A DNA stretch of 64,000 nt from Gaiellaceae bacterium (GTDB lineage Bacteria > Actinomycetota > Thermoleophilia > Gaiellales > Gaiellaceae): the NCBI GenBank assembly GCA_050697555.1, contig JBOHAD010000002.1, positions 10,464 to 74,463 of the forward strand, in the 5' to 3' direction. Position numbers and translations under genes: made by a program. Each line of letters starts with the position of its first letter. Position 1 is the stretch's first letter. Below the pieces are notes generated by a model, which was not told where the DNA came from, did not search any database, and was given only the letters and a program-made list of their open reading frames with translations. Of the stretch, positions 38,788-49,849 are shown piece after piece.

Positions 38788-39927
38788 ATGAGGCGCATCG
38801 TCGTGCTGGGCGGGTTGCTCGCGCTCGTCGCCATGGGCTGCGGTGGCGGCGATGAGGGCGGCGCGGGCGGGGGGCGGTCGAGCGGAGAGGCGAGTGACGA
38901 GCTTGCCGTCTCGACTCTCGGGTGGGAGACCGACTTCTCCAAGCACACGGTGCCCCTCTCAGAATTCATGAGCGGGGGACCGGGGAAGGACGGGATCCCG
39001 GCGGTCGACGAGCCGAAGTTCGTTTCGGTCGAGGAGGCAGGCGACTGGCTCGCCGCGCGGGAGCCGGTCATCGAGCTCGAGCTCGGCGGTGTCACCCGCG
39101 CGTATCCGCTCCAGATTCTCGTCTGGCACGAGATCGTGAACGACGAGGTTGCCGGTCGCCCTGTGGCGGTGACGTTCTGTCCCCTCTGCAACACGGCCAT
39201 CGTCTTCGACCGGCGTTTGGACGAACGGGTGCTCGACTTCGGCACGACAGGCAATCTGCGCCACTCGGACCTCGTCATGTACGACCGCCAAACCGAGAGC
39301 TGGTGGCAACAGTTTGGGGGCGAGGCCGTCGTGGGCGAGCTCGCCGGCGAGCGCCTGGAGCTGCTGCCCTCGCGGATCGTCGCCTGGGGGGACTTCGCCG
39401 GCCGCCATCCCGACGGGGAGGTTCTCTCCCGGGACACAAGCTTCGGCCGCGACTACGGCCGTAATCCCTACGCCGGCTACGACGACGTCGACTCGGGCCC
39501 CTTCTTCCCTGCGAAGGGAGCGGACGACGATCGACTCCTGCCGAAGGAACGCGTCGTGTTCATCGAGCTCGAAAACGAGGCCGTCGCGGTTCCGTTCTCT
39601 GTCCTGCGGAAGGAGCAGACGATGGAGGTGGAGGTCGGGGGAGAGCGGCTCGAGCTCCGCTGGGTGCCGGGGGTCGGTTCCGCGCTCGACTCGCCCGACA
39701 TCGGGGATGGGCGCGAGGTCGGCTCCGCGGAGGTGCGGTCGCTCGTGAGTGGCGAGCCGGTGCCGTTCGACCAGCCGTTCTGGTTCGCGGTTGCCTCCTT
39801 CCGCCCCGACATCCGGATCGTGGGAGCCGAGGCGGGGGCGAGCTCCTCCTCGTCCGCCCCAAAGGACACCGTCCCGGCCGCGCCAGCCTCTCCGCCGCGG
39901 CGCGGTTACCTGGCTCCTCAGGCGTAG
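38788..39927 (+). CDS. DUF3179 domain-containing lipoprotein
   Basis: Lipobox LVAMGCGG. GKDGIPAVDEPKF, ELGGVTRAYPLQILVWHEIVND, TFCPLCNTAIVFDR and GTTGNLRHSDLVMYDRQTESWWQQ are typical DUF3179 motifs. Confidence 0.85.
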   Translation: MRRIVVLGGLLALVAMGCGGGDEGGAGGGRSSGEASDELAVSTLGWETDFSKHTVPLSEFMSGGPGKDGIPAVDEPKFVSVEEAGDWLAAREPVIELELGGVTRAYPLQILVWHEIVNDEVAGRPVAVTFCPLCNTAIVFDRRLDERVLDFGTTGNLRHSDLVMYDRQTESWWQQFGGEAVVGELAGERLELLPSRIVAWGDFAGRHPDGEVLSRDTSFGRDYGRNPYAGYDDVDSGPFFPAKGADDDRLLPKERVVFIELENEAVAVPFSVLRKEQTMEVEVGGERLELRWVPGVGSALDSPDIGDGREVGSAEVRSLVSGEPVPFDQPFWFAVASFRPDIRIVGAEAGASSSSSAPKDTVPAAPASPPRRGYLAPQA

Positions 39928-39932
39928 CCGCG

Positions 39933-40475
39933 CTACTCCCAGGTGATCGAGCGTCGGACCCAGCTGAACTCGGCCGCGTGAGCGGTCTGGTTCTCGGCGG
40001 CGAAGATGATGATCGCCACTTCGCCGGAGTCGAGCTCGATTCCATAAACGCGCATGGTCGGGCCAAGCGGGTCGTCCTGGTTGGCCGCCCAGATGATCGA
40101 CGCCTCGACGCCGGGTCGGTCGCCGATGCGGGCGGTCTGCGTGTACACGAGCGTCGTTCCGTCACCCCGGGGAGGACGCAGGATGGCGGCGGCGAGCTCG
40201 GCAAACTCCGCATGGGATCTGTGCTTGCGCCGCGGGAGATACTGCACGCCGATGAAGGCCGCTGTTCGCTCCGTGTTGTCGTTCAGGAGCTCGCCGAAGC
40301 GGTCGGAGCGGCCTCGGCCCCAGTCGCTCGGGTATCGCAGCGTCAGCCGTCCATCCGCGTAGGTCTCGTCGATCCAGGAGGGGAAGTATTCCTCGACCGG
40401 TGGCGTGGAGGTCTGTTCGTTGCCGAGCGAGCAGCCCGCCCCGAGGAGAGCGAGGAGAACAAGAATCGTGGGCAC
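39933..40475 (-). CDS. lipoprotein of unknown function
   Basis: Lipobox LLGAGCS. 180 aa. Confidence 0.65.
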   Translation of the reverse strand: MPTILVLLALLGAGCSLGNEQTSTPPVEEYFPSWIDETYADGRLTLRYPSDWGRGRSDRFGELLNDNTERTAAFIGVQYLPRRKHRSHAEFAELAAAILRPPRGDGTTLVYTQTARIGDRPGVEASIIWAANQDDPLGPTMRVYGIELDSGEVAIIIFAAENQTAHAAEFSWVRRSITWE

Positions 40476-40490
40476 ATCCGGTTGGATGCG

Positions 40491-41204
40491 TCAGATCTGC
40501 CAACCGGTGTAGCGGGCGAGCCGTGTCGTCAGTCGGACGAGGTCGCCGCTGATGAGGAGCGCGCCGAAGGCGACGAGCACAGTGGCGGAGGCAACGCTGA
40601 CGGTGCGCCAGTGACTGCGCAGCCAGCGGACGAGCCCGAGCGAGCGCGTGAACGCGAGCCCGAAGAAGAGGAACGGCAGGCCGAGGCCGAGCGAGAAGGC
40701 GGCCAGGAGGACGGCACCCTCGGCCGCGCCTCCGCCTCCGGCTGAGAGCGTCAGGATCGCCGCCAGCGTCGGCCCGACGCAGGGCGTCCACCCGATCGCG
40801 AATGCGACTCCGGTGAGCCCGGAGGCAGCCATGCTTCCGCCGGGTCGGAGGCCGAGGCGGCGCTCGGTCGAGAGGAGCCGCGGAAGGGGGAGCCCGAGGA
40901 AGGTGACGGCGGCGACGATGATCAAGATCCCCGCGGCGATCTCGAGCGGGCGCCGGTTCTCGAGCAGGAAACTGCCGAACCAGGCGGCCCCGGCGCCGAA
41001 CGCGACGAACATGGCCGTGAATCCGCCGACGAAGGCCGCCGTAGACGTGGTGACCCGGCGCGGGCGGGCGCCGAGCTCGTCGAAGCCGACCCCCGAGACG
41101 AAGGAGAGATAGCCGGGCACGAGCGGGAGCACGCAAGGCGATGTGAAAGAGACGACGCCGGCGGCGAAGGCGAGCGCCAGCCCTGCGGGGCCGAGCTCGA
41201 TCAC
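40491..41204 (-). CDS. ccdA: cytochrome c biogenesis / thiol-disulfide transfer protein CcdA
   Basis: FTSPCVLPLVPGYL and IGWTPCVGPTLAAIL motifs, 6 TM. GTG 41204 overlaps the stop of the upstream reductase (GTGA). Confidence 0.88.
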   Translation of the reverse strand: MIELGPAGLALAFAAGVVSFTSPCVLPLVPGYLSFVSGVGFDELGARPRRVTTSTAAFVGGFTAMFVAFGAGAAWFGSFLLENRRPLEIAAGILIIVAAVTFLGLPLPRLLSTERRLGLRPGGSMAASGLTGVAFAIGWTPCVGPTLAAILTLSAGGGGAAEGAVLLAAFSLGLGLPFLFFGLAFTRSLGLVRWLRSHWRTVSVASATVLVAFGALLISGDLVRLTTRLARYTGWQI

Positions 41205-42565
41205 GTATCCGCAGCCGGGTCGAGCGGCAGGTCGCGGGCGGCAAAGAAGAGCGCCTCCGAGAAGGTGGGGAAGGGCTGGATTGTGCTTCGGAGGACGTCG
41301 ACGGGGACTTCCGCCTGGATCGCGAGCGTGACCTGGCCAATCCACTCGCCGGCCTCGGGGCCGACGGCGACCGCGCCGACCAGGATGCGACGCCCGGGAT
41401 CCGCGAAGAGCCTGACGAAGCCGGGCCGCTTCGGTCGCTCATAGGTCGAGGAGCGCGAGGTGGCGTTGACCTCCCAGCTCGCGGAGACGAGCCCCTCGCC
41501 GTCGGTGCGGCCGACCGAGGCGACCTGAGGGTCGGTGAAGGCTACAGCCGGAACCGCCCGGTAGTCGGCCCGGGCGTCGCCGCCGGCGACGTTCACCGCG
41601 GCCACCCGTGCCTGATACTTGCCCATGTGCGTGAAGAGCGCGATCCCGGTGACGTCCCCGATCGCCCACACGTTCTCCGCGGCCTGGAGGCGGTCGTCGA
41701 CCTCGATTCCGGTCCTACCGAGCCGCACGCCGACGTCCTTGAGACCGAGTCCGTCGACATTCGGACGCCGGCCGGTCGCGACGAGGAGCCGTTCCGCCTC
41801 GAGCAGCACGCCTCCGGGGAGGTGGAGGCGGAAGCCGTCCGACGTCCGCTCGACCGCCTCCGTGAGCGTGTTCAGGAGGATGTCGATTCCCTCCTCTTCG
41901 AGGGTGGCCTGGATGAGGCGACCCGCGTCGGGGTGGTCGCGGGGCAAGAGATGGTCGATGTCCTGGACGATCGTGACCCTCGTGCCTAGCCGTGCGAAGA
42001 ACCGGGCGAGCTCGCAGCCGACCACCCCGCCGCCGAGCACGACGAGGCTGCCCGGCAGCTCGCGAGTCGTCGTCGCCTCGCGGTTCGTCCAGTAGCCGCT
42101 GCCCTTGAGGCCGTCGATGGGGGGCGCGGAGGCCGAGGAGCCCGTCGCGACGACGAGCTTCTGGTACTCCACCTCGCGGTCTCCGACTTGGAGGGGGCCG
42201 GGGCGGACGACCCGTCCGGCGCCGCGGACGACTTCGACCTGTCGGTCGGCGAGCCAGGTCTCGTGGCTCGAGTCGTCGAGCTCGTCGGTAACGTGGTCCC
42301 GCCACCAGAGGACGCGCTCCCAGTCCGTCTCTCCGTTGACCGCCTCGGCCGCACCCGGGGCGCGGCGTGCCGCCGCGACGACTTCGAGCGGGCGCAGGAG
42401 CGTCTTCGAGGGCATGCACGCCCAGTAGGTGCACTCGCCCCCGAGGAGTTCTCTCTCGACGAGCGTGATCGGCACCTCGGCATCGAGGCGCCTGAGCGCC
42501 CCGCCGCACGCCTCGCCGGTCGAGCCGCCGCCGAGGACGACGACGCGTCCGCCCTCACCTGCCAT
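41201..42565 (-). CDS. class I pyridine nucleotide-disulfide oxidoreductase (LpdA/dihydrolipoyl dehydrogenase-like)
   Basis: VVVLGGGSTGE FAD motif. Redox pair GGECTYWACMPSK. NAD motif VVLGGGVVGCELA. C-terminal dimerisation domain. The ATG at 42565 is preceded by GGAGGGAG. Confidence 0.88.
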   Translation of the reverse strand: MAGEGGRVVVLGGGSTGEACGGALRRLDAEVPITLVERELLGGECTYWACMPSKTLLRPLEVVAAARRAPGAAEAVNGETDWERVLWWRDHVTDELDDSSHETWLADRQVEVVRGAGRVVRPGPLQVGDREVEYQKLVVATGSSASAPPIDGLKGSGYWTNREATTTRELPGSLVVLGGGVVGCELARFFARLGTRVTIVQDIDHLLPRDHPDAGRLIQATLEEEGIDILLNTLTEAVERTSDGFRLHLPGGVLLEAERLLVATGRRPNVDGLGLKDVGVRLGRTGIEVDDRLQAAENVWAIGDVTGIALFTHMGKYQARVAAVNVAGGDARADYRAVPAVAFTDPQVASVGRTDGEGLVSASWEVNATSRSSTYERPKRPGFVRLFADPGRRILVGAVAVGPEAGEWIGQVTLAIQAEVPVDVLRSTIQPFPTFSEALFFAARDLPLDPAADT

Positions 42566-42687
42566 TGATTCGCTCCCTCCGTTCGATCGTAGGATGCACT
42601 GCTCGTGTTCGATTCCCCGGGAGCGCCGAACGTTGCACGGCCACTCCTTGCGGCGCTCGACCGCCCGCGCGCATCTGAAGGAGAGCC

Positions 42688-44172
42688 ATGAGCGGGAACG
42701 GCGCACCGAGAGCCCGCATCGACCGGCCCGAGGTCTTCCTCGAGCTGACCAAATCGATCTGCCCTCTCTGCAAGCGGGTGATCGACGCGGAGGTCAACGT
42801 GCGTGACAACCGCGTGATCATGCGCAAGCGCTGCCCCGAGCACGGGCCCTTCGAGGCCCTCGTCTACTCCGATGCCGAGCTCTACACGGCGCAGCTCCGC
42901 TTCAACAAGCCGGGGACGTTGCCGCTCGAGTTCCAGACGGAGGTGAAGGACGGCTGCCCGTTGGACTGCGGGCTCTGTCCCGAGCACAAGCAGCACGCCT
43001 GCCTGGGGCTGATCGAGGTGAACTCCAACTGCAACCTCGACTGTCCCATCTGCTTCGCCGACTCGGGGCACCAGCCCGACGGGTTCGCGCTGACGGTCGA
43101 GCAGGTCTCCTTCATGGTCGACCGCTTCGTGGCCGCGGAGGGGGAGCCGGAGGTGCTCCAGTTCTCCGGAGGCGAGCCCTCCATCCACCCGCGGATCGTC
43201 GAGTTCATGGAGCTCGCGAAGGGACGCGGGATCCGCGTCGTCATGCTGAACACGAACGGCCTCCGGCTCGCCCGCGACCCGCGTTTCGCCGCCGAGTGCG
43301 CCCGCGTGGGGTCGCACGTCTACCTCCAGTTCGACGGCTTCGAGCGCGAGACGCACCTGGCGATCCGGGGTCGTGACCTGCGCTCCGACAAGGAGCGAGC
43401 GCTGGCCAACTGCCAACGGGAGGGTGTGAGCGTGACCCTCGTGGCGGCCGTCGAGCGGGGCGTGAACGAGCACGAGGTCGGCGAGATCGTCCGCCTCGGC
43501 GTCTCCCACCCGGCCGTGAACAGCGTCGTCTTCCAGCCCGTGACGCATGCAGGCCGGCACCTCGTCTTCGACCCTCTCGAGCGTCTCACGAACGCCGATG
43601 TCATGAAGCTCGTCGCCGCTCAGGTGCCCGAGTGGTTCCGGGTCGACGACTTCGTTCCCGTCCCCTGCTGCTTTCCGAACTGCCGCAGCATGAGCTATGC
43701 GCTCGTCGACGGGGGAGACGTGATTCCGCTCACGCGCCTCTTCGAGGTCGAGGACTACCTGGACTACCTCTCGAACCGGGTCATCCCCGACCTCGAGATC
43801 CGGGGCGCGCTCGAGCGGATGTTCTCGTCGTCTGCGACGCCCGGCGCCGAGGCCGCCCTCCTCGCCTGTGAGAGCTGCGCGGTCGACGTTCCTGCCGCCC
43901 TCGCCGACGTCCGTGAGCACGCGTTCGTGCTCGCCGTGCAGGACTTCCAGGATCCGTACACGCTGAACGTCCGCCAGCTGATGAAGTGCTGCATCGCGCA
44001 GATCACGCCGGACGGGCGACTCATCCCCTTCTGCGCCTACAACTCCGTCGGCTACCGCGAGCAGGTGCGCGCGCTGCTGACCGGTGCCGAGGTTGTGCCG
44101 GTCGTCCCGAACGCGGAGCCGCTCCAGCCCTTGCTGGCCTACACGTCCTACGGATCGAGGCGCCTGCCGTGA
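42688..44172 (+). CDS. radical SAM protein with N-terminal Cys-rich ribbon (MJ0619 / tetraether-synthase-like branch, from memory)
   Basis: ICPLCKRVIDAEV...KRCPEHGPF, GCPLDCGLCPEHKQH, and radical SAM cluster motif NSNCNLDCPICFA (CxxxCxxC). LQFSGGEPS SAM-binding motif. Confidence 0.85.
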   Translation: MSGNGAPRARIDRPEVFLELTKSICPLCKRVIDAEVNVRDNRVIMRKRCPEHGPFEALVYSDAELYTAQLRFNKPGTLPLEFQTEVKDGCPLDCGLCPEHKQHACLGLIEVNSNCNLDCPICFADSGHQPDGFALTVEQVSFMVDRFVAAEGEPEVLQFSGGEPSIHPRIVEFMELAKGRGIRVVMLNTNGLRLARDPRFAAECARVGSHVYLQFDGFERETHLAIRGRDLRSDKERALANCQREGVSVTLVAAVERGVNEHEVGEIVRLGVSHPAVNSVVFQPVTHAGRHLVFDPLERLTNADVMKLVAAQVPEWFRVDDFVPVPCCFPNCRSMSYALVDGGDVIPLTRLFEVEDYLDYLSNRVIPDLEIRGALERMFSSSATPGAEAALLACESCAVDVPAALADVREHAFVLAVQDFQDPYTLNVRQLMKCCIAQITPDGRLIPFCAYNSVGYREQVRALLTGAEVVPVVPNAEPLQPLLAYTSYGSRRLP

Positions 44173-45005
44173 CCGCAAGCCCGGAGGCGATCAAGGCCTG
44201 CTGCGCGACCGCCTACGCCTCGCCCGTCGCGCGCTGGCTCTTGGGCTCGAGCTTCCATCCCGGCGGGGTGGCGCTCACGCGGCGGCTGATCCGTTCCCTC
44301 GGCGTAGGTTCGGGCGACACGGTCGCGGACGTGGCATGCGGCCCGGGCGCGAGTTCAATGCAGCTTGCCCGCGAGGCGGGGTGTCGCGTCGTCGGGATCG
44401 ACCTCTCGTCCGAGTCCATCGAGTCGGCCCGGCGCGCAGCAGAAGAGACGGGGCTCGCCGCCTCGGTCAGCTTCGTGGTCGGGGACGCGGAGGCGCTTCC
44501 TCTCGAGGACGCGAGCGTCGACGGGGTCCTCTGCGAGTGCTCTCTCTGCACGTTCCCGGACAAGCGTTCGGCGGCCGCCGAGCTCTCCAGGGTCTTGAAG
44601 CCGGGCGGACGGCTCGCGCTCTCCGACATGACCGCCGATCCCGCGAAGCTGCCCGCGTCGCTGCGGACCCTCGAGGCCTGGATCGCCTGCCTGGCCGACG
44701 CGCGTCCGCTTCCTGCGCTCGTCGAGCTCCTCCGCGGCGCGGGGCTCGTCGTCGAGAGCGTGGAGCGCCACGACGACGCGCTCGCACGACTCCTCGACCG
44801 TGTCGAGGCGCGCCTTCGCCTCGCACGGGTCGCCCTCGCCCACGGCGGCGATCCCGCTCTCGTCGACCGCGGCCTTGAGCTCGTGGCGGTCGCGCGAGAG
44901 AGCCTCGAGCGCGGCTTCCTCGGCTACGCCGTCCTCGCCGCCCGCCGGCCGGCCGGCCGAGTCGAAGCGACCGCCAGGCCGGTCGGCGCATCGAACCTCG
45001 TGTGA
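44169..45005 (+). CDS. class I SAM-dependent methyltransferase, ArsM-like (CC motif)
   Basis: IKACCATAYASPVARWLLGSSFHPGG, VADVACGPGASS (motif I), VDGVLCECSLCTFPDK and LKPGGRLALSD. The GTG start overlaps the rSAM stop (GTGA). Confidence 0.8.
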   Translation: MTASPEAIKACCATAYASPVARWLLGSSFHPGGVALTRRLIRSLGVGSGDTVADVACGPGASSMQLAREAGCRVVGIDLSSESIESARRAAEETGLAASVSFVVGDAEALPLEDASVDGVLCECSLCTFPDKRSAAAELSRVLKPGGRLALSDMTADPAKLPASLRTLEAWIACLADARPLPALVELLRGAGLVVESVERHDDALARLLDRVEARLRLARVALAHGGDPALVDRGLELVAVARESLERGFLGYAVLAARRPAGRVEATARPVGASNLV

Positions 45006-45607
45006 GCGGCGAAGAACGTCCGCGAAACCGCCGCCCTCCCCTGCGGATCGGCCTCGCGGCGCTTGCGCTGGCTGCCCTTCTTGCCGTAGCGGTCTTCGCC
45101 GCTCTCGCCCTCCTCTCCGACGACGGAGCGCTCCGGGGGAGCCCGAGCCCCGGCTCCCCCGGCGCCTCCTCGGCGCAACCGGTCGCAGTGACGCCGGAGG
45201 AGGCGCCGACGCTGCTCGGGGAGGATCCGATCAGCGGGGAGGAGGTCACGCTCGCCGACTTCCGTGGGAAGCCGGTGGTGATCAACGTCTGGGCCTCCTG
45301 GTGCCCGGGCTGCAACGACGAGGCGGCCGACCTGCGCGAGTTCGCCGCCGACCACCCCGAGGTCGTGGTCCTGGGCGTCGACTTCCAGGACACCGTCGAG
45401 GGGGCGCGCCGCTTCTACCGGCGCTGGGAGTGGACGCACCCGAGCATCTTCGACTCGTCGGGAACGCAGAGCGCGGCGCTGGGGCTTTTCGGCATGCCGA
45501 CGACCCTGTTCCTCGACAGCCGGCACCGCATCGCCGCGCGCGTCGTGGGGGCCACCGACCGGGCCGGATTCGAGCACGGGCTCGAGCTCGCCACGCAGGC
45601 CTCGTAA
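45002..45607 (+). CDS. membrane-anchored TlpA/ResA-family thiol:disulfide oxidoreductase (CPGC)
   Basis: TM anchor, then FRGKPVVINVWASWCPGCNDEA. The GTG start overlaps the methyltransferase stop (GTGA). Confidence 0.88.
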   Translation: MSGEERPRNRRPPLRIGLAALALAALLAVAVFAALALLSDDGALRGSPSPGSPGASSAQPVAVTPEEAPTLLGEDPISGEEVTLADFRGKPVVINVWASWCPGCNDEAADLREFAADHPEVVVLGVDFQDTVEGARRFYRRWEWTHPSIFDSSGTQSAALGLFGMPTTLFLDSRHRIAARVVGATDRAGFEHGLELATQAS

Positions 45608-45692
45608 GAGAGGCCGGTGCTCCGTGCAACCGGGAGGGCGCGTGCGCATCGGACCGCGAAGGTAAGACAAACGACAGAGGGGGCAAGCTGCG

Positions 45693-46199
45693 ATGCAGTT
45701 CAACTGGTGGGAAGGCCTCGCAGCGGGCGCGGTCGCGACCGTGGCGATGACAGTCCTCATGCAGATGGGTGCGGCGATGGGCATGACGCGCATGAACATG
45801 GCCCTCATGCTCGGCTCTATGTTCCGCCGCGATCCCGAGTCTGCCAGGTCGGTAGGGATGACCCTCCACTTCATGAACGGCCTCGCGTTCGGCGTTCTCT
45901 ACGCACTCGTCTGGAGGGCGATCGATCCTGCCGATCTCGCCGACGCCTGGTGGATCGGTCTCATCTTCGGCGCCGTGCACGGGGTGGTCGCGATGGCCAT
46001 GATGCCGGTGATGAGCGCCATGCACCCGCGCGTCCGAAGCGACGCGCTGGCGGTCTCCGAAGGACCGGGGAGCGAGGTGCGGCTCCCCCCGTTCGGCTTC
46101 GGCGGCCGCGGCTTCGGTGCGATGACGCCGATGGGCATCCTGCTCGGCCACCTCGTGTTCGGCGTCGTCTGGGGGTTCGTTTTCTGGTGGCTCGCCTAG
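45693..46199 (+). CDS. integral membrane protein (4 TM, Met-rich)
   Basis: 168 aa, hydrophobic, Met/Gly-rich. Confidence 0.65.
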   Translation: MQFNWWEGLAAGAVATVAMTVLMQMGAAMGMTRMNMALMLGSMFRRDPESARSVGMTLHFMNGLAFGVLYALVWRAIDPADLADAWWIGLIFGAVHGVVAMAMMPVMSAMHPRVRSDALAVSEGPGSEVRLPPFGFGGRGFGAMTPMGILLGHLVFGVVWGFVFWWLA

Positions 46200-46219
46200 A
46201 CGGAAACACAACGGTCGCC

Positions 46220-46531
46220 GTGGAGCTGCTCTACTTCGAAGGCTGTCCACACTGGCGGCAGGCGGCCGCAGCAATTGCCGACGCTGCCCGGGTCACGGGG
46301 ATCAGGTCGGATGTCCGCGCGACCAGAGTCTCTGACCCAGAGGACGCCGTTCGCCATCATTTCCTCGGCTCGCCCACGGTGCGTGTCGCGGGTCGCGACG
46401 TCGACCCTGCGGCGCAGCAGCGTTCCGCGTACGCGCTCGCCTGCCGGGTCTACGACTCGGAGGCGGGACGAGCGTGGTCCCCTCCAGTCGGGTGGATCGC
46501 CGCCGCGCTTCACGAGGCCGCGGGCGCGTGA
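46220..46531 (+). CDS. small thioredoxin-fold-like protein (YFEGCPHW motif)
   Basis: VELLYFEGCPHW...HHFLGSPTVRVAGRDV resembles small thioredoxin-like proteins. GTG 46220 is the suggested start. Confidence 0.6.
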   Translation: MELLYFEGCPHWRQAAAAIADAARVTGIRSDVRATRVSDPEDAVRHHFLGSPTVRVAGRDVDPAAQQRSAYALACRVYDSEAGRAWSPPVGWIAAALHEAAGA

Positions 46532-47031
46532 GCCCGCCTCTCCTCGCCCGGTGGCCGCCGCTGGCACCTCTTCTCTACGGGCTCCTCCTGGCAGGAATGG
46601 CGGCGGGTCAGGTCGCCAGCCTCGACACCTTCGAGGACGCGCTGGCGTCCTACGAGCTCCTGGGCGGACTGCTTCCCGCCGCCGTGATCGGTCTGCCGGC
46701 GCTGGAGGTGCTTGCCGCCCTGGGGCTGCTCGGGTCCCGCCTGCTGCCTCGGCGTGCCGCCCGCGCGGCCGGAGTGCTCGGCATTGTCGTCGCCGTCGCC
46801 TGGTCGGTCCTCGCCGTCCAGGCGTTCGCGCGCGGGCTCGCGGTCGAGAACTGCGGCTGCTTCGGCGCCTATCTGGCTCAGGAGCTCCGCTGGTGGGTGC
46901 TGCTCGAGGACGCCTACCAGCTGCTGCTCGCTCTCCTGGCGGCGCGCGCGCTCGACGTTCGCCTCCTCGGAAGAGGCCGGGTGCCGGTCTCCGCGTTGGG
47001 CGAGGCCCCGCCGGAGCCTGCCCGGCGATGA
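46528..47031 (+). CDS. MauE/DoxX-family redox-associated membrane protein
   Basis: 4 TM plus the ENCGCFG motif. The GTG start overlaps the previous stop (GTGA). Confidence 0.8.
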   Translation: MSPPLLARWPPLAPLLYGLLLAGMAAGQVASLDTFEDALASYELLGGLLPAAVIGLPALEVLAALGLLGSRLLPRRAARAAGVLGIVVAVAWSVLAVQAFARGLAVENCGCFGAYLAQELRWWVLLEDAYQLLLALLAARALDVRLLGRGRVPVSALGEAPPEPARR

Positions 47032-47684
47032 CCCGGCTCGCCGTGTTTGCGGCAGTGGCGGCCGTGGCGCTCATCGTTCCCGCCCCGGGCGCCGCAGGCA
47101 CCGAGCGCTGCTGCTTCCTCGTCGATGCGCGGGCTTCCGGGCGCCTGTCGCTGACGGCCGGAACCGATCTCGCGGCACCGGGTGCGAGTGCCTATCGCGC
47201 TCGCTGGCGCTGGAGGGTGCGGCACGTCGTCCGCTACGTCGAGCACGGCCGGATCTTCAACGCCCTCACGACATTCGGATCGTTGCGGCAGCGCGAGCTC
47301 TCGATCCGGCTCTCGGAGGAGCGAGCCGGCCTGCGCGTCCCAACCTGCCGGCGCGAAGTCAGCCGGGACCTCGCGAGAGGGAGCAGGGAGGCGTACGTCT
47401 CCTTGGAGGACACGACCGAGGGCGACATAGCGCTCGTGGTTCGCGCCAATCATCAGGCGCTTCGGTCGCGCTGCAGCCCCGCGCTCGCGCTGCCGACGGC
47501 ACACATCGGCCCGGCGCCCGCGGGCGTCCTCCTGCGACAGGCACGCACGCTCTCACTCGCCTGGCGAGATCCGATCCGTCTCGAAGACGGTCGTCTCGTC
47601 GGGTCGGTCGAGGTTAATGTGCGCCTGTCGGTGGTTTCGCCGACGCGCGTCGCCGCCGCATTTCACCACGGCCGGCGCCCGTGA
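47028..47684 (+). CDS. secreted hypothetical protein
   Basis: The ATG overlaps the MauE stop (ATGA). Signal peptide AVFAAVAAVALIVPAPGAAG. Contains a CC pair. Confidence 0.6.
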   Translation: MTRLAVFAAVAAVALIVPAPGAAGTERCCFLVDARASGRLSLTAGTDLAAPGASAYRARWRWRVRHVVRYVEHGRIFNALTTFGSLRQRELSIRLSEERAGLRVPTCRREVSRDLARGSREAYVSLEDTTEGDIALVVRANHQALRSRCSPALALPTAHIGPAPAGVLLRQARTLSLAWRDPIRLEDGRLVGSVEVNVRLSVVSPTRVAAAFHHGRRP

Positions 47685-47701: not shown

Positions 47702-47974
47702 TCAGCCTGCGTCGTCCCGGCCCTCGTCCCGCACGCGCCCAAGGACCCGAGAGGTAAAGTCAGGATCGGGAGGCGGCTCTTCGCGGCCGAGGCCTCGGAG
47801 GGACTCGAGCGTCGCGAGAAACGAGCGGTAGAGGGCCTGGCACTTCTCGCACCGCGCCAGATGACGAGCGACCCGCCAGCGGCGGTAACCGGTGAGCTCG
47901 CCCTCGGCGTATTCCGAAATGGAGCGGGCGGTCTCCCCGTGCGACCCGTTGATGGCGAAGAGGAGGATGCTCAC
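47702..47974 (-). CDS. zf-HC2 anti-sigma factor-like protein
   Basis: YAEGELTGYRRWRVARHLARCEKCQALY contains the H-x3-C-x2-C motif. GTG 47974 is suggested, because the longer ORF would overlap the sigma gene start. Confidence 0.6.
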   Translation of the reverse strand: MSILLFAINGSHGETARSISEYAEGELTGYRRWRVARHLARCEKCQALYRSFLATLESLRGLGREEPPPDPDFTSRVLGRVRDEGRDDAG

Positions 47975-48043
47975 GGTCTCTTGGATGCGGCGGCCGCCGG
48001 GCCCGTCGCAGGCTAGCGGAACAAGGCTGCTAGCGTCCTCCCG

Positions 48044-48631
48044 ATGCCGCATCCGGAAGCCGCGCTGCTCCTGCGGGCACAGGAAGGCGACCTCGACGCC
48101 TTCGCCGAGTTCGTCCGCGTGTTCGAGCGTCGCGTCCGAGGGGTGCTCGCGCGCCTCCTCGATGACGAGCGCGACATCGAGGAGGCGGCGCAGGACACGT
48201 TCGTGCAAGCGTGGCGGCATCTCGATCGCTTCCGCGGCGAGGCCGCCCCCTTCACCTGGCTCTACCGGATCGCTGTCAACGAGGCACTGCAGCGAAACCG
48301 ACGGCGGCGCCTGGACACGCAGCCGCTCGAGCAAGCGGCCGATCTCGAGACTCGCGTCAGTCCCGAGTCGACTGCCGGGCGGCCGCTGCCGGCGGACGTC
48401 GCGGCCGGGCAGCGTGAGGAGATCGCAGTCTTGCTCGCCGAGTTGCGCGCGCTTCCCTTTGAGTCACGCGCGCCCCTCGTCCTCCACGACGTCGAGGGAT
48501 GGCCGTACGAGGACGTCGCCGCCGTGCTGGATATCTCAGTCTCCGCCGCCAAGAGCCGCGTGCACCGGGCGCGGCTCCAGGTGATCCGAGCCCTCACCGG
48601 CCTGGGACCGGGAGGGGGGCTCACGGGTTGA
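48044..48631 (+). CDS. ECF (sigma-70 family) RNA polymerase sigma factor
   Basis: Region 2 (DIEEAAQDTFVQAWRHLDRFRGEAAPFTWLYRIAVNEAL) and region 4 (LVLHDVEGWPYEDVAAVLDISVSAAKSRVHRAR). Confidence 0.9.
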   Translation: MPHPEAALLLRAQEGDLDAFAEFVRVFERRVRGVLARLLDDERDIEEAAQDTFVQAWRHLDRFRGEAAPFTWLYRIAVNEALQRNRRRRLDTQPLEQAADLETRVSPESTAGRPLPADVAAGQREEIAVLLAELRALPFESRAPLVLHDVEGWPYEDVAAVLDISVSAAKSRVHRARLQVIRALTGLGPGGGLTG

Positions 48632-48721: not shown

Positions 48722-49282
48722 GTGACCGGTCGTAGGTTCGCATCCGTTCTGGCCCTCGGCGCGTCGGCGGCTGGACTCTACGGCCTCCTTGTTCGTGGAG
48801 CGCTGACGGTCGATATCCAGATCGGCAGGAGCGTGCGCCCGCTCGGACCCTTCACCGTCCGGATCGACGCATCTCGCGAGGTCGTCTTCGACGTGATCTC
48901 GGCGCCCTATCTGCGCCGGACCCCACGGGCGCTCGAGGGGAAGCTCGAGGTCGTCGAACGGGGAACTGACATGGTGCTAGCCGCGCACTTCACGGACGTC
49001 GGTCGCCTCGTCGCGACTACGCTCGAGACCGTCCGCTTCGACCCGCCGAGCGAGATCCATTTCCGTCTCGTTCGCGGCCCCGTGCCGTACGTGGTCGAGA
49101 GCTTCGTCCTGAGCGAGGCCGGCCCCGGGACGGTGCTCGAGTATGCCGGCGAGCTCGGCACGGACCTGTGGTCGCTCGGCCGGTGGTGGGGGGGCCGGGT
49201 CGCCCCGCGGTGGGAGGCGGCGGTCGAGAGCTCACTCGCTGACGTGAAGACGGAGGCCGAGCGACGGGCCCCCCGGAGGTAA
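48722..49282 (+). CDS. SRPBCC (START/polyketide cyclase-like) family protein with N-terminal TM
   Basis: 186 aa. VVFDVISAPYL...EIHFRLVRGPVPYVVESFVL...GTVLEYAGELG. Confidence 0.7.
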   Translation: MTGRRFASVLALGASAAGLYGLLVRGALTVDIQIGRSVRPLGPFTVRIDASREVVFDVISAPYLRRTPRALEGKLEVVERGTDMVLAAHFTDVGRLVATTLETVRFDPPSEIHFRLVRGPVPYVVESFVLSEAGPGTVLEYAGELGTDLWSLGRWWGGRVAPRWEAAVESSLADVKTEAERRAPRR

Positions 49283-49333: not shown

Positions 49334-49849
49334 GTGAACCGGATGCTGCGTCTCGGAGCCCTCGCCGTCGCACTCGCCGCGCTCGCCGCGTGCGGCGGGA
49401 ACAGCTCGGGCGGCGCCGACGCGGCTGGTAGCGCGGCAACCAGCTCCCCAGCAGCCTCGACCGTCGCGCTCGAGGGCGAGACGCTCGACGGCGACCGCCT
49501 CTCACTTGCCGACCTCCGCGGGAAGCCGGTCTTCGTCAACGTCTGGGCCTCCTGGTGACCCATCTGCAACGGCGAGGCGGTCGCCTACGCGCGCTTTGCG
49601 GAGAGCCACCCGGAGTACGGGTTCGTCGGCCTGAATATCTCCGACGACCGAGACGACGCCAAGGGATTCCTGCACAAGTACGGCTGGACGTGGCCCTCGC
49701 TCGCCGACCCGGGCGCCGAGCTCGCCGGCTCCCTCGGACTCTACGGACACCCCGCCGTCGCCGTCCTCGACGAGCGCGGCGCCGTAATCGCCCGCCACAT
49801 CGGCGGCGGTGACGCCACAATCTGGGAGGCGCTCGCAGACGAGCTCTAG
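49334..49849 (+). CDS. TlpA-family thiol:disulfide oxidoreductase lipoprotein with in-frame TGA (49556..49558) at the first Cys of CxxC: candidate selenoprotein (UPIC)
   Basis: Lipobox LAACGG. LRGKPVFVNVWASW-TGA-PICNGEA aligns residue for residue with FRGKPVVINVWASWCPGCNDEA of 45002..45607. The frame stays open and homologous to TAG 49847..49849 (YGWTWPS, GLYGHPAVAVLDERG). Confidence 0.65.
49571..49585 (+). other. candidate bacterial SECIS hairpin
   Basis: GGCGA-GGCGG-UCGCC starts 12 nt after the UGA. The loop starts GG. The stem is short (5 bp). Confidence 0.35.

Follow-up and report, generated by a model that had tools for sequence, protein, structure and literature searches.

A widely conserved bacterial radical SAM-methyltransferase pair, sister variant of TrsS/DVU_1556 and distinct from tetraether synthase and ArsM

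The nearest described counterpart of the genes analysed here is a pair known only bioinformatically, namely the radical S-adenosylmethionine (rSAM) (seleno)protein TrsS and the methyltransferase DVU_1556, reportedly described on bioinformatic grounds by Haft and Tolstoy in 2025. The TrsS superfamily also contains MJ0619, which has been re-assigned as GDGT-MAS, its original pterin methylase activity not being reproducible; this enzyme binds lipid and abstracts hydrogen from an unactivated terminal lipid carbon, and it carries a rubredoxin-type site (C9X2C12X20C33X2H36), an N-terminal [4Fe-4S] cluster on C73/C77/C80 plus a His, the CX3CX2C site, and a C-terminal cluster that has a labile Met439 and on the sulfide of which a lipid radical is trapped (PMC9433317). 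On the methyltransferase side, Cys72, Cys174 and Cys224 are conserved in all ArsMs, and a survey of arsM genes accepted sequences with at least three of four Cys (PMC5552862); a precedent for an rSAM enzyme acting with ArsM exists in arsinothricin biosynthesis (bioRxiv 10.1101/2024.02.01.577332, PMC8552651). Here, we analyse a stretch of 64,000 nucleotides (the window; G+C 69%) from a Gaiellaceae bacterium (GenBank assembly GCA_050697555.1, contig JBOHAD010000002.1, positions 10,464 to 74,463 of the forward strand), in which genes for an rSAM enzyme, a methyltransferase and a TlpA-like oxidoreductase follow one another (Table 1). The rSAM-methyltransferase module stands beside the TrsS/DVU_1556 pair as a sister variant and is neither Tes, nor ArsM, nor a pterin methylase; it is widely conserved and uncharacterised, and its chemistry is probably new. 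Our literature searches returned no characterised bacterial pair of a Tes-like rSAM enzyme and a methyltransferase, no rSAM enzymes for arsenolipids, and nothing on DVU_1556.

The rSAM protein, like GDGT-MAS/Tes in its four-cofactor architecture, consists of a rubredoxin-like ribbon (C25-x2-C28-x20-C49-x2-H52), an N-terminal auxiliary cluster site (G-C90-PLD-C94-GL-C97-PEH, that is, C90/C94/C97 with H100/H103), the radical SAM site C115-NLD-C119-PI-C122 and a Cys-rich C-terminal domain, and its three N-terminal cofactor motifs are identical to those of GDGT-MAS and invariant, or nearly so, among 82 orthologues. Pfam recognises Zn_ribbon_HMPTM (PF23545) and Radical_SAM, the sole strong relative in the PDB is GDGT-MAS (MJ0619, 7TOL/7TOM; E 1e-78, residues 19-460), and the AlphaFold2 (AF2) model (predicted template-modelling score 0.81, with cluster loops of low confidence, as expected without cofactors) matches 7TOM/7TOL in Foldseek with a template-modelling score of 0.71 (E 5e-36), the next match being MoaA at 0.39. 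As far as the model goes, GDGT-MAS is thus the only full-length fold match, and the placement proposed in an earlier note on this DNA, with MJ0619 and the tetraether synthases and not with the SPASM or B12 classes, is borne out, as are all the Cys motifs that it had listed in the two enzymes. The C-terminal domain is where the two proteins part. It shares the KCC...PFC portion with GDGT-MAS/Tes (NF045702) and has eight conserved Cys (C327, C328, C332, C394, C397, C434, C435 and C449), but four of these, C327/C328 and C394-x2-C397, are invariant among the 82 orthologues and have no GDGT-MAS counterpart; V and Q stand where GDGT-MAS has Cys438/Met439, and insertions of GDGT-MAS amounting to about 36 residues are absent. 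The family models place the protein outside both curated groups: it scores 346 bits on the TrsS model (cut-off 490) and 321 bits on the Tes model (cut-off 450), the latter aligning only residues 21-330 in its best stretch, and the 15 nearest non-fused representatives of 50% clusters score 252-363 bits, below both cut-offs, compared with 635-698 bits on the TrsS model for the bona fide TrsS proteins P0212, P0205 and P0216. We therefore reject membership in Tes and in TrsS for the protein and for all 15 representatives; since their scores lie between the two families, they form a third, uncurated branch of the superfamily, that is, a separate bacterial clade.

This homology to GDGT-MAS over the full length is also the first argument for a genuine bacterial synthase of tetraether or membrane-spanning lipids, in which the rSAM enzyme, like Tes, would link two lipid chains end to end through Csp3 carbons, the alkyl tails being of the type found in branched glycerol dialkyl glycerol tetraether lipids (brGDGTs) or iso-diabolic acid and the methyltransferase would add methyl branches. 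Orthologues in Acidobacteriota (Bryobacterales, Terriglobia) and Chloroflexota fit such a role, as do the treatment of bacterial Tes homologues in the literature as brGDGT candidates and the presence of homologues of Lgt (prolipoprotein diacylglyceryl transferase), CDP-alcohol phosphatidyltransferase and SRPBCC proteins among the neighbours. However, the scores of the protein and of its nearest cluster representatives fall short of the Tes equivalog, the ligands of the C-terminal cluster differ with four extra invariant Cys, a class I methyltransferase is unable to methylate a saturated chain, and Streptomyces, Kitasatospora and Mycolicibacterium have members of the clade, some of them plasmid-borne or beside transposases. 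We know of no membrane-spanning lipids in these three genera. Conversely, most producers of iso-diabolic acid lack Tes homologues (PMC13159169), which is a further point against this role, and altogether we regard tetraether synthesis by the pair as decidedly unlikely.

The methyltransferase matches the DVU_1556 family best among NCBIfam models, where its 149.4 bits stop just short of the cut-off of 155, and reaches 104 bits on the ArsM model PRK11873, for which the cut-off is 263. The N-terminal Cys pair and the CECSLC cluster reported previously are both present, as C11C12 and C122-E-C124-SL-C127, and among 76 orthologues C11/C12 are conserved at 96-97%, C124 at 100%, C174 at 99%, and C122 and C127 at 83-89%, with the H30-P-G-G33 motif and E123 also near-invariant. 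Aligning the family with ArsM sequences taken from PDB entries 4KW7, 5EVJ and 8XT7, hhalign gave a probability of 99% (E 2e-18, 188 columns). In both hidden Markov model and profile-profile alignments, C124 and C174 correspond to C174 and C224 of CmArsM, respectively; C11 corresponds to ArsM C44 by ungapped extension and by MAFFT, and the residue aligned with ArsM C72 is G32 in HPGG. That is, the protein would pass the filter of at least three of four Cys (PMC5552862), yet it lacks C72. Compared with ArsM/AS3MT (4FS8, 5EVJ, 8XT7), it shares a homologous Rossmann core and the Cys at the As(III)-ligand positions C174 and C224 and at C44 but has neither the ArsM C-terminal domain nor an ars gene context, and its fold resembles RebM, AtmM, TleD and MitM. 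Specifically, phmmer searches of the PDB gave 4e-25 for MitM/RebM and 9e-10 for ArsM, while the AF2 model (mean predicted local distance difference test 91) matched AtmM, TleD, SpnF, RebM and MitM as well as geranyl pyrophosphate (GPP) C-methyltransferase and phosphoethanolamine N-methyltransferases, with ArsM absent from the top 50 Foldseek matches. Identity with ArsM is rejected on the missing Cys72, the score and the fold matches; the resemblance to ArsM that the earlier note had perceived holds for the equivalents of Cys44, Cys174 and Cys224 and for the profile match, not for the rest. Judged from its sequence, the protein appears to combine an ArsM-related, thiolate-lined active site with a different methyltransferase scaffold.

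Automatic names for these proteins are varied. JGI calls close relatives of the rSAM protein "tetraether lipid synthase" or "7,8-dihydro-6-hydroxymethylpterin dimethyltransferase" and labels most close homologues of the methyltransferase "arsenite methyltransferase"; NCBI gives both proteins generic names only. All three specific labels are unsupported by the membership tests above, and the pterin (HMPTM) label is in addition uninformative because MJ0619 has been re-assigned and its original activity was not reproducible.

The Cys equivalents in the methyltransferase raise the possibility of an organo-metalloid pathway, in which the rSAM enzyme would form a C-As (or C-Se/C-Te) bond and the methyltransferase would be an ArsM-type metalloid methyltransferase. 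ArsS-ArsM and ArsL-ArsM would then be joined by a third combination of an rSAM enzyme with an ArsM-type enzyme, which would serve detoxification or yield a bioactive product. In ArsL-ArsM (arsinothricin) and ArsS-ArsM (arsenosugar), an rSAM enzyme makes a carbon-heteroatom bond and a Cys-lined methyltransferase methylates the heteroatom, and these systems are, by analogy only, the nearest mechanistic precedent for the logic that we propose below; they differ in that the rSAM enzyme of the window matches TrsS and Tes best in NCBIfam (ArsL and ArsS were not directly compared) and has no arsenic genes nearby. A metalloid role is consistent with the Cys pattern, since of the four positions in ArsM three are retained, among them the two to which As(III) stays bound during the whole of catalysis, so that the published criterion (PMC5552862) would be passed. 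It is also consistent with the arsinothricin precedent and with neighbours such as a MerR regulator and a MerA-like reductase, besides thiol proteins of the AhpD, glutaredoxin and TlpA types. Some of the loci lie on plasmids or have mobile elements at their flanks; TrsS, the sister family, is a selenoprotein; and a putative selenocysteine-containing TlpA is encoded 4 kb from the pair. On the other hand, Cys72, conserved in all ArsMs (PMC5552862), is replaced by HPGG, the ArsM score is far below the cut-off, an ArsM-type C-terminal domain or fold match is missing, and five loci manage without the methyltransferase. Moreover, the recurrent neighbours in 80 loci include no arsR/arsC/acr3-type family, and de novo clustering of the neighbours found no ars, mer or sel gene families. 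Hence, we consider a metalloid pathway possible but unlikely.

To what extent the two genes belong together can be read from their distribution. A scan of one genome per species recovered 80 loci with rSAM orthologues (52-78% identity) in Actinomycetota, Chloroflexota, Acidobacteriota, Dormibacterota and Armatimonadota, the actinomycetotal hosts including cultured Streptomyces, Kitasatospora hibisci, Saccharopolyspora cebuensis, Amycolatopsis echigonensis and Mycobacterium sp. SM1. Pairing was counted over a non-redundant set of 80 loci that had 1 kb or more of downstream sequence and included three metagenome relatives (L001, L003, L005): the methyltransferase gene lies immediately downstream on the same strand in 74 of these, and a fused locus brings the total to 75. 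The latter (L010:9926-13408, from the uncultured Actinomycetes metagenome-assembled genome CAWAGI010000009.1) consists of one open reading frame of 1160 aa with the order rSAM, methyltransferase, an unassigned region of about 250 aa, and AhpD/CMD; the AhpD/CMD domain carries CPYC, and an Lgt homologue is encoded directly upstream. Two methyltransferase-rSAM fusions, P0212 and P0260, are bona fide TrsS proteins and, therefore, coupling of the two activities is ancestral to both branches. Accordingly, the co-occurrence that the earlier note had asked about extends to 75 of 80 loci, five phyla, and fusions in two clades.

The gene junctions tell the same story. Both of the 4-nt overlaps noticed at the outset are real, the sequence GTGA at 44169-44172 and again at 45002-45005 serving as stop and start, and the same gene calls were made on an NCBI contig of a metagenome-assembled genome (GCA_050697835.1) that bears an identical rSAM gene. 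An NTGA overlap joins the rSAM and methyltransferase genes in 43 of 75 orthologous loci, most others having a gap or an overlap of less than 30 nt, and L003, L086 and L087, the close relatives that were inspected, all keep the overlap between the methyltransferase and TlpA genes, so the overlaps are not due to chance. The methyltransferase is a near-obligate, translationally coupled partner of the rSAM enzyme; GDGT-MAS, in contrast, works without a methyltransferase in its published reaction (PMC9433317). Accidental gene order, that is, three unrelated genes packed together in a compact high-GC genome, would accord with the commonness of GTGA/ATGA overlaps in high-GC actinobacteria, with a third such overlap that joins the reductase and CcdA genes of the window, and with the variable position of TlpA between lineages; however, conservation of the pair across five phyla and the domain fusions in two clades effectively refute it for the rSAM and methyltransferase genes, and overall we find this explanation hardly credible.

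Several loci depart from, or add to, the basic pair. The five of 80 loci without a methyltransferase gene are all from Chloroflexota (L045, L049, L057, L060, L067) and have an Lgt homologue adjoining the rSAM gene instead; Lgt is adjacent in seven loci, including all five of these, Lgt-rSAM fusions occur (P0152, P0269), and an overlapping Lgt-rSAM operon lies on a plasmid of Chondrinema litorale (L169:7259-9380). A 183-kb plasmid of Mycolicibacterium vanbaalenii JOB5 (NZ_CP126902.1; L168:12016-14384) carries the pair (rSAM gene at 129074-130657, methyltransferase gene at 128289-129077) at 61% identity with a 4-nt overlap, divergent from a TlpA-like/CcdA operon and near genes for CMD-family, deiodinase-like, glutaredoxin-domain, MFS and Crp/Fnr proteins and a second, small radical SAM protein. 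On the chromosome of Kitasatospora hibisci (L015:11503-13091), the order is reductase, rSAM, methyltransferase, methyltransferase, the second class I methyltransferase gene also being joined by a 4-nt overlap, and a Mutator-family transposase gene is found upstream of the pair.

Counting neighbours within about 10 kb, including two duplicate loci and the window itself, the most frequent was a class I flavoprotein disulfide reductase (about 35 loci), followed by DUF427 (17), DUF3179 (16), TlpA-like proteins (15), CDP-alcohol phosphatidyltransferase (15), Crp/Fnr (14), CcdA (12), MauE (9) and Lgt (7). The reductase gene is often directly upstream of the rSAM gene on the same strand in Acidobacteriota, and the CDP-alcohol phosphatidyltransferase gene often comes directly after the methyltransferase gene. 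The order in the Streptomyces island is MerR, DUF427, CDP-OH_P_transf, SRPBCC, reductase, DUF3179, MauE, rSAM, methyltransferase, Crp, TlpA, CcdA, with an integrase-like gene beside it in one case (L021). The three close relatives (86-89% identity) have rSAM-methyltransferase-TlpA with both overlaps, followed by MauE, zf-HC2 and an ECF sigma factor, and lack the reductase.

TlpA is linked to the pair in about 15 of 85 loci, plus the Mycolicibacterium plasmid, and its position varies between lineages; against a random expectation of about 1% for a 20-kb window (our rough figure), the linkage is recurrent and enriched, yet, with so few loci, TlpA is accessory and not core. The protein has the active site WASWCPGC (WCPGC) and a hydrophobic N-terminal membrane anchor, and it is a generic TlpA-like protein since all specific NCBIfam matches (DsbE/ResA/TlpA) were below cut-off. 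By its anchor, the thioredoxin domain is predicted to be extracytoplasmic, whereas the rSAM enzyme and the methyltransferase are presumed to be cytoplasmic, having no signal peptide or membrane anchor. The notion of an exported thiol reductase coupled to the two enzymes therefore stands as to overlap and location; as a general feature it does not. The arrangement recalls the TlpA/ResA-CcdA pathway in having a membrane-anchored thioredoxin-fold protein with WCPGC and CcdA encoded nearby but differs in that CcdA is coupled to a flavoprotein reductase and TlpA to a cytoplasmic methyltransferase.

We compared the system with TrsS on the basis of NCBIfam scores, a review table and a survey of 80 metagenome TrsS loci (L088-L167). 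TrsS (NF045646) and DVU_1556 (NF045667) likewise comprise a Tes-like rSAM enzyme and a Cys-bearing class I methyltransferase, with (H/R)PGG and EC(S/A)L motifs and fusions, but the C-terminal Cys of TrsS lie in GCGC/CCC loops, with a single Cys in place of KCC. The partners in the TrsS loci are a C_GCAxxG_C_C protein (59/80), an F390-synthetase-like ligase (53/80), the DVU_1556 methyltransferase (52/80), the DVU_1551 MocA-like NTP transferase/HD protein (47/80), an Fe-S oxidoreductase (46/80), a CobC-like phosphatase (43/80), a small zinc-ribbon protein (35/80), a molybdenum hydroxylase (33/80) and XdhC (30/80). The methyltransferase aside, none of these TrsS partner families is among the recurrent neighbours of the 80 loci of the present clade or annotated around the pair in the window, and, conversely, no reductase, TlpA, CcdA, DUF3179, CDP-OH transferase or Lgt was detected in the 80 TrsS loci. 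The two-enzyme core is all that the two systems share. Further, the TrsS loci come from metagenome contigs of unidentified hosts, whereas the hosts of the present pair are mostly taxa that we take to be aerobic soil groups.

The conserved TrsS cluster hints at a cofactor-related role for TrsS, and by extension the present pair might act, apart from membranes, on a soluble cofactor that is rich in thiols or binds metal, for instance a pterin/dithiolene or a thiol of low molecular weight. The TrsS partners listed above that suggest such chemistry are the MocA-like NTP transferase, XdhC, molybdenum hydroxylase, F390-synthetase-like ligase, C_GCAxxG_C_C protein and CobC-like phosphatase; the rSAM-methyltransferase core is the only component common to both systems, and DUF427 and thiol-redox proteins occur at the present loci. 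Yet neither set of partners recurs around the other clade, and the Lgt fusions and adjacency point to a membrane substrate in the present one, so that we deem cofactor tailoring quite improbable.

We favour, with a rough probability of 0.4, the hypothesis that the pair functionalises a C-H bond of a hydrophobic substrate, probably a lipid, by radical chemistry and then methylates the product at a site lined with thiolates. Under this hypothesis, the rSAM enzyme would activate its hydrophobic substrate, most likely one linked to a glycerolipid, by taking hydrogen from an unactivated sp3 carbon and would form a carbon-heteroatom bond, with sulfur from the cluster/Cys site as the default and Se or As as possible alternatives; the methyltransferase would then bind the resulting soft centre through its thiolates and methylate the soft atom. 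The divergent reductase-CcdA unit, the co-transcribed TlpA, DUF3179, MauE and ZAS/ECF would constitute an accessory thiol-redox cassette, not a catalytic partner, which may supply or buffer reducing power on both sides of the membrane. The existence of Lgt loci without a methyltransferase suggests that methylation is a dispensable tailoring step. We count in favour of this hypothesis the homology to GDGT-MAS with its shared cofactor sites, the conserved and sometimes fused pairing, the conserved Cys of the methyltransferase at ArsM positions, the lipid links (Lgt adjacency in seven loci, the Lgt-rSAM fusions, and CDP-alcohol phosphatidyltransferase in 15 loci) and the thiol-redox links (reductase, TlpA, CcdA and DUF3179, with a similar set on the M. 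vanbaalenii plasmid). Several points weigh against it. The C-terminal cluster chemistry of the rSAM enzyme may differ from that of GDGT-MAS because Cys438/Met439 are replaced by V/Q. The methyltransferase fold resembles small-molecule/prenyl C-, O- and N-methyltransferases (TleD, the GPP and phosphoethanolamine enzymes, RebM), and since methyltransferases of such fold need no thiolate site, the Cys might have a different task, holding a structural metal or an Fe-S cluster. Only a minority of loci have Lgt, and the same is true of CDP-alcohol phosphatidyltransferase. Because TrsS sits in molybdenum-hydroxylase/cofactor contexts, the core chemistry need not involve lipids.

A more specific form of the favoured hypothesis is the installation of a heteroatom on a lipid tail, in which a terminal carbon radical of a membrane lipid would be trapped on S, Se or As at the extra Cys and the methyltransferase, derived from ArsM, would cap the heteroatom. 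Lipids ending in a methylthio, methylseleno or dimethylarsino group would result, and on both membrane sides the reactive intermediate would be dealt with by the thiol-redox cassette. We rate this form as quite unlikely; if true, it would be the first lipid-tail heteroatom-installing system and a bacterial route to arsenolipid-like or thio-lipid molecules, the biosynthesis of which is not known to us.

The remaining features of the window (Table 1) are mostly concerned with thiol redox. The reductase and CcdA genes share a third GTGA overlap (41201-41204, minus strand; reductase stop and CcdA GTG start), which suggests an electron-supply unit, and this pairing is unusual because CcdA is normally fed by thioredoxin. 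The reductase scores 328 bits on the MerA model TIGR02053 (cut-off 454); it has the CxxxxC disulfide (C46/C51) alone and no C-terminal Cys pair and is, therefore, not MerA, an enzyme that has such a pair in addition to the disulfide and usually NmerA as well. Taken together, the reductase, CcdA, TlpA, DUF3179 and MauE proteins with the ZAS-ECF pair resemble a redox cassette that responds to thiol stress. Near the rSAM-methyltransferase pair, genes for cytochrome c maturation or Cu delivery were not seen. The cluster encodes at least three predicted lipoproteins (the DUF3179 protein, the 180-aa protein and the second TlpA-like protein), and a review names DUF3179 among the families that include selenoproteins. 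The second TlpA-like protein is 38% identical to the first, and its in-frame TGA occupies the first Cys position of the CxxC (VWASW-TGA-PIC; WASW-U-PIC, with U aligned to Cys) in a frame that spans the complete thioredoxin fold. The same TGA is found in the relative L087 (WASW-TGA-PVC) and, being kept there despite substitutions downstream, it is likely a selenocysteine codon; the hairpin downstream of the TGA was not significant (z -1.4), and no tRNA-Sec was found in the window.

The 122-bp divergent spacer was correctly delimited in the earlier note, the reductase gene beginning at 42565, but the operator that the note suspected in its two GTTCGAT repeats is rejected. The repeat is a bare 7-mer without extension beyond 7 nt, the window as a whole holds 13 copies against 6.6 expected, some repeated 7-mer would arise in 122 bp with a chance of about one third by our own estimate, and the three close relatives do not keep the spacer, their CcdA gene lying directly against the rSAM gene. 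A promoter and terminator scan of 42300-47200 found none, including no sigma-70-like promoter, and an Rfam search of 38-52 kb gave no credible match.

Table 1. Features in and around the rSAM-methyltransferase module; positions are those of the window.
Feature	Position	Strand	Basis and remarks
DUF3179 protein	38788..39927	+	Pfam PF11376, E 2e-97; lipobox and CPLC motif
180-aa lipoprotein	39933..40475	-	Lipobox LGAGC; no Pfam/NCBIfam match; homologue seen only in duplicate contig L004
CcdA/DsbD-type transmembrane thiol electron transporter	40491..41204	-	Pfam DsbD_TM; gene call in L004
Class I flavoprotein disulfide reductase	41201..42565	-	Pfam Pyr_redox_2/Pyr_redox_dim; C46-x4-C51 redox disulfide
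Divergent 122-bp spacer	42566..42687	.	Two GTTCGAT 7-mers (42581, 42607); Shine-Dalgarno of the rSAM gene
rSAM enzyme, GDGT-MAS/Tes/TrsS superfamily, 494 aa	42688..44172	+	Pfam, NCBIfam, 7TOL, AF2 model; ATG start, preceded by GAAGGAGAG
Class I SAM methyltransferase, DVU_1556-like, ArsM-related, 278 aa	44169..45005	+	NCBIfam, hhalign, AF2 model; GTG start
TlpA/ResA-like thiol:disulfide oxidoreductase, 201 aa	45002..45607	+	Pfam AhpC-TSA/Redoxin; N-terminal anchor; GTG start
DUF6789 membrane protein	45693..46199	+	Pfam
MauE/DoxX-like membrane protein	46474..47031	+	Pfam PF07291; also in L003, L086, L087 and Streptomyces loci
zf-HC2 (ZAS-type) anti-sigma factor	47702..47980	-	Pfam PF13490; same arrangement in L003, L086, L087
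Extracytoplasmic function (ECF) sigma factor	48044..48631	+	Family search; homologues in L003/L086/L087 annotated Sigma70_r2/r4
SRPBCC (Polyketide_cyc2) protein	48722..49282	+	Pfam; also in Streptomyces island
Second TlpA-like lipoprotein, candidate selenoprotein	49334..49849	+	In-frame TGA at 49556-49558

These results bear on how such genes are counted in environmental surveys. Bacterial "Tes homologues" serve as genomic markers for producers of brGDGTs, the basis of palaeoclimate proxies, and counting the present clade, found in five bacterial phyla and mostly in soil-associated lineages, as tetraether synthase is unsafe because it falls outside the Tes criteria. Similarly, inventories of soil arsM may be inflated since the methyltransferase is automatically annotated as "arsenite methyltransferase" and would pass the 3-of-4-Cys filter. 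Finally, the rSAM and methyltransferase logic of the TrsS system is extended here to a new context, and the cultured, tractable hosts of the pair, namely M. vanbaalenii JOB5 with its plasmid, Streptomyces vastus JCM 4524, Kitasatospora hibisci and Saccharopolyspora cebuensis, open the chemistry of an uncharacterised Tes-like branch to experiment.

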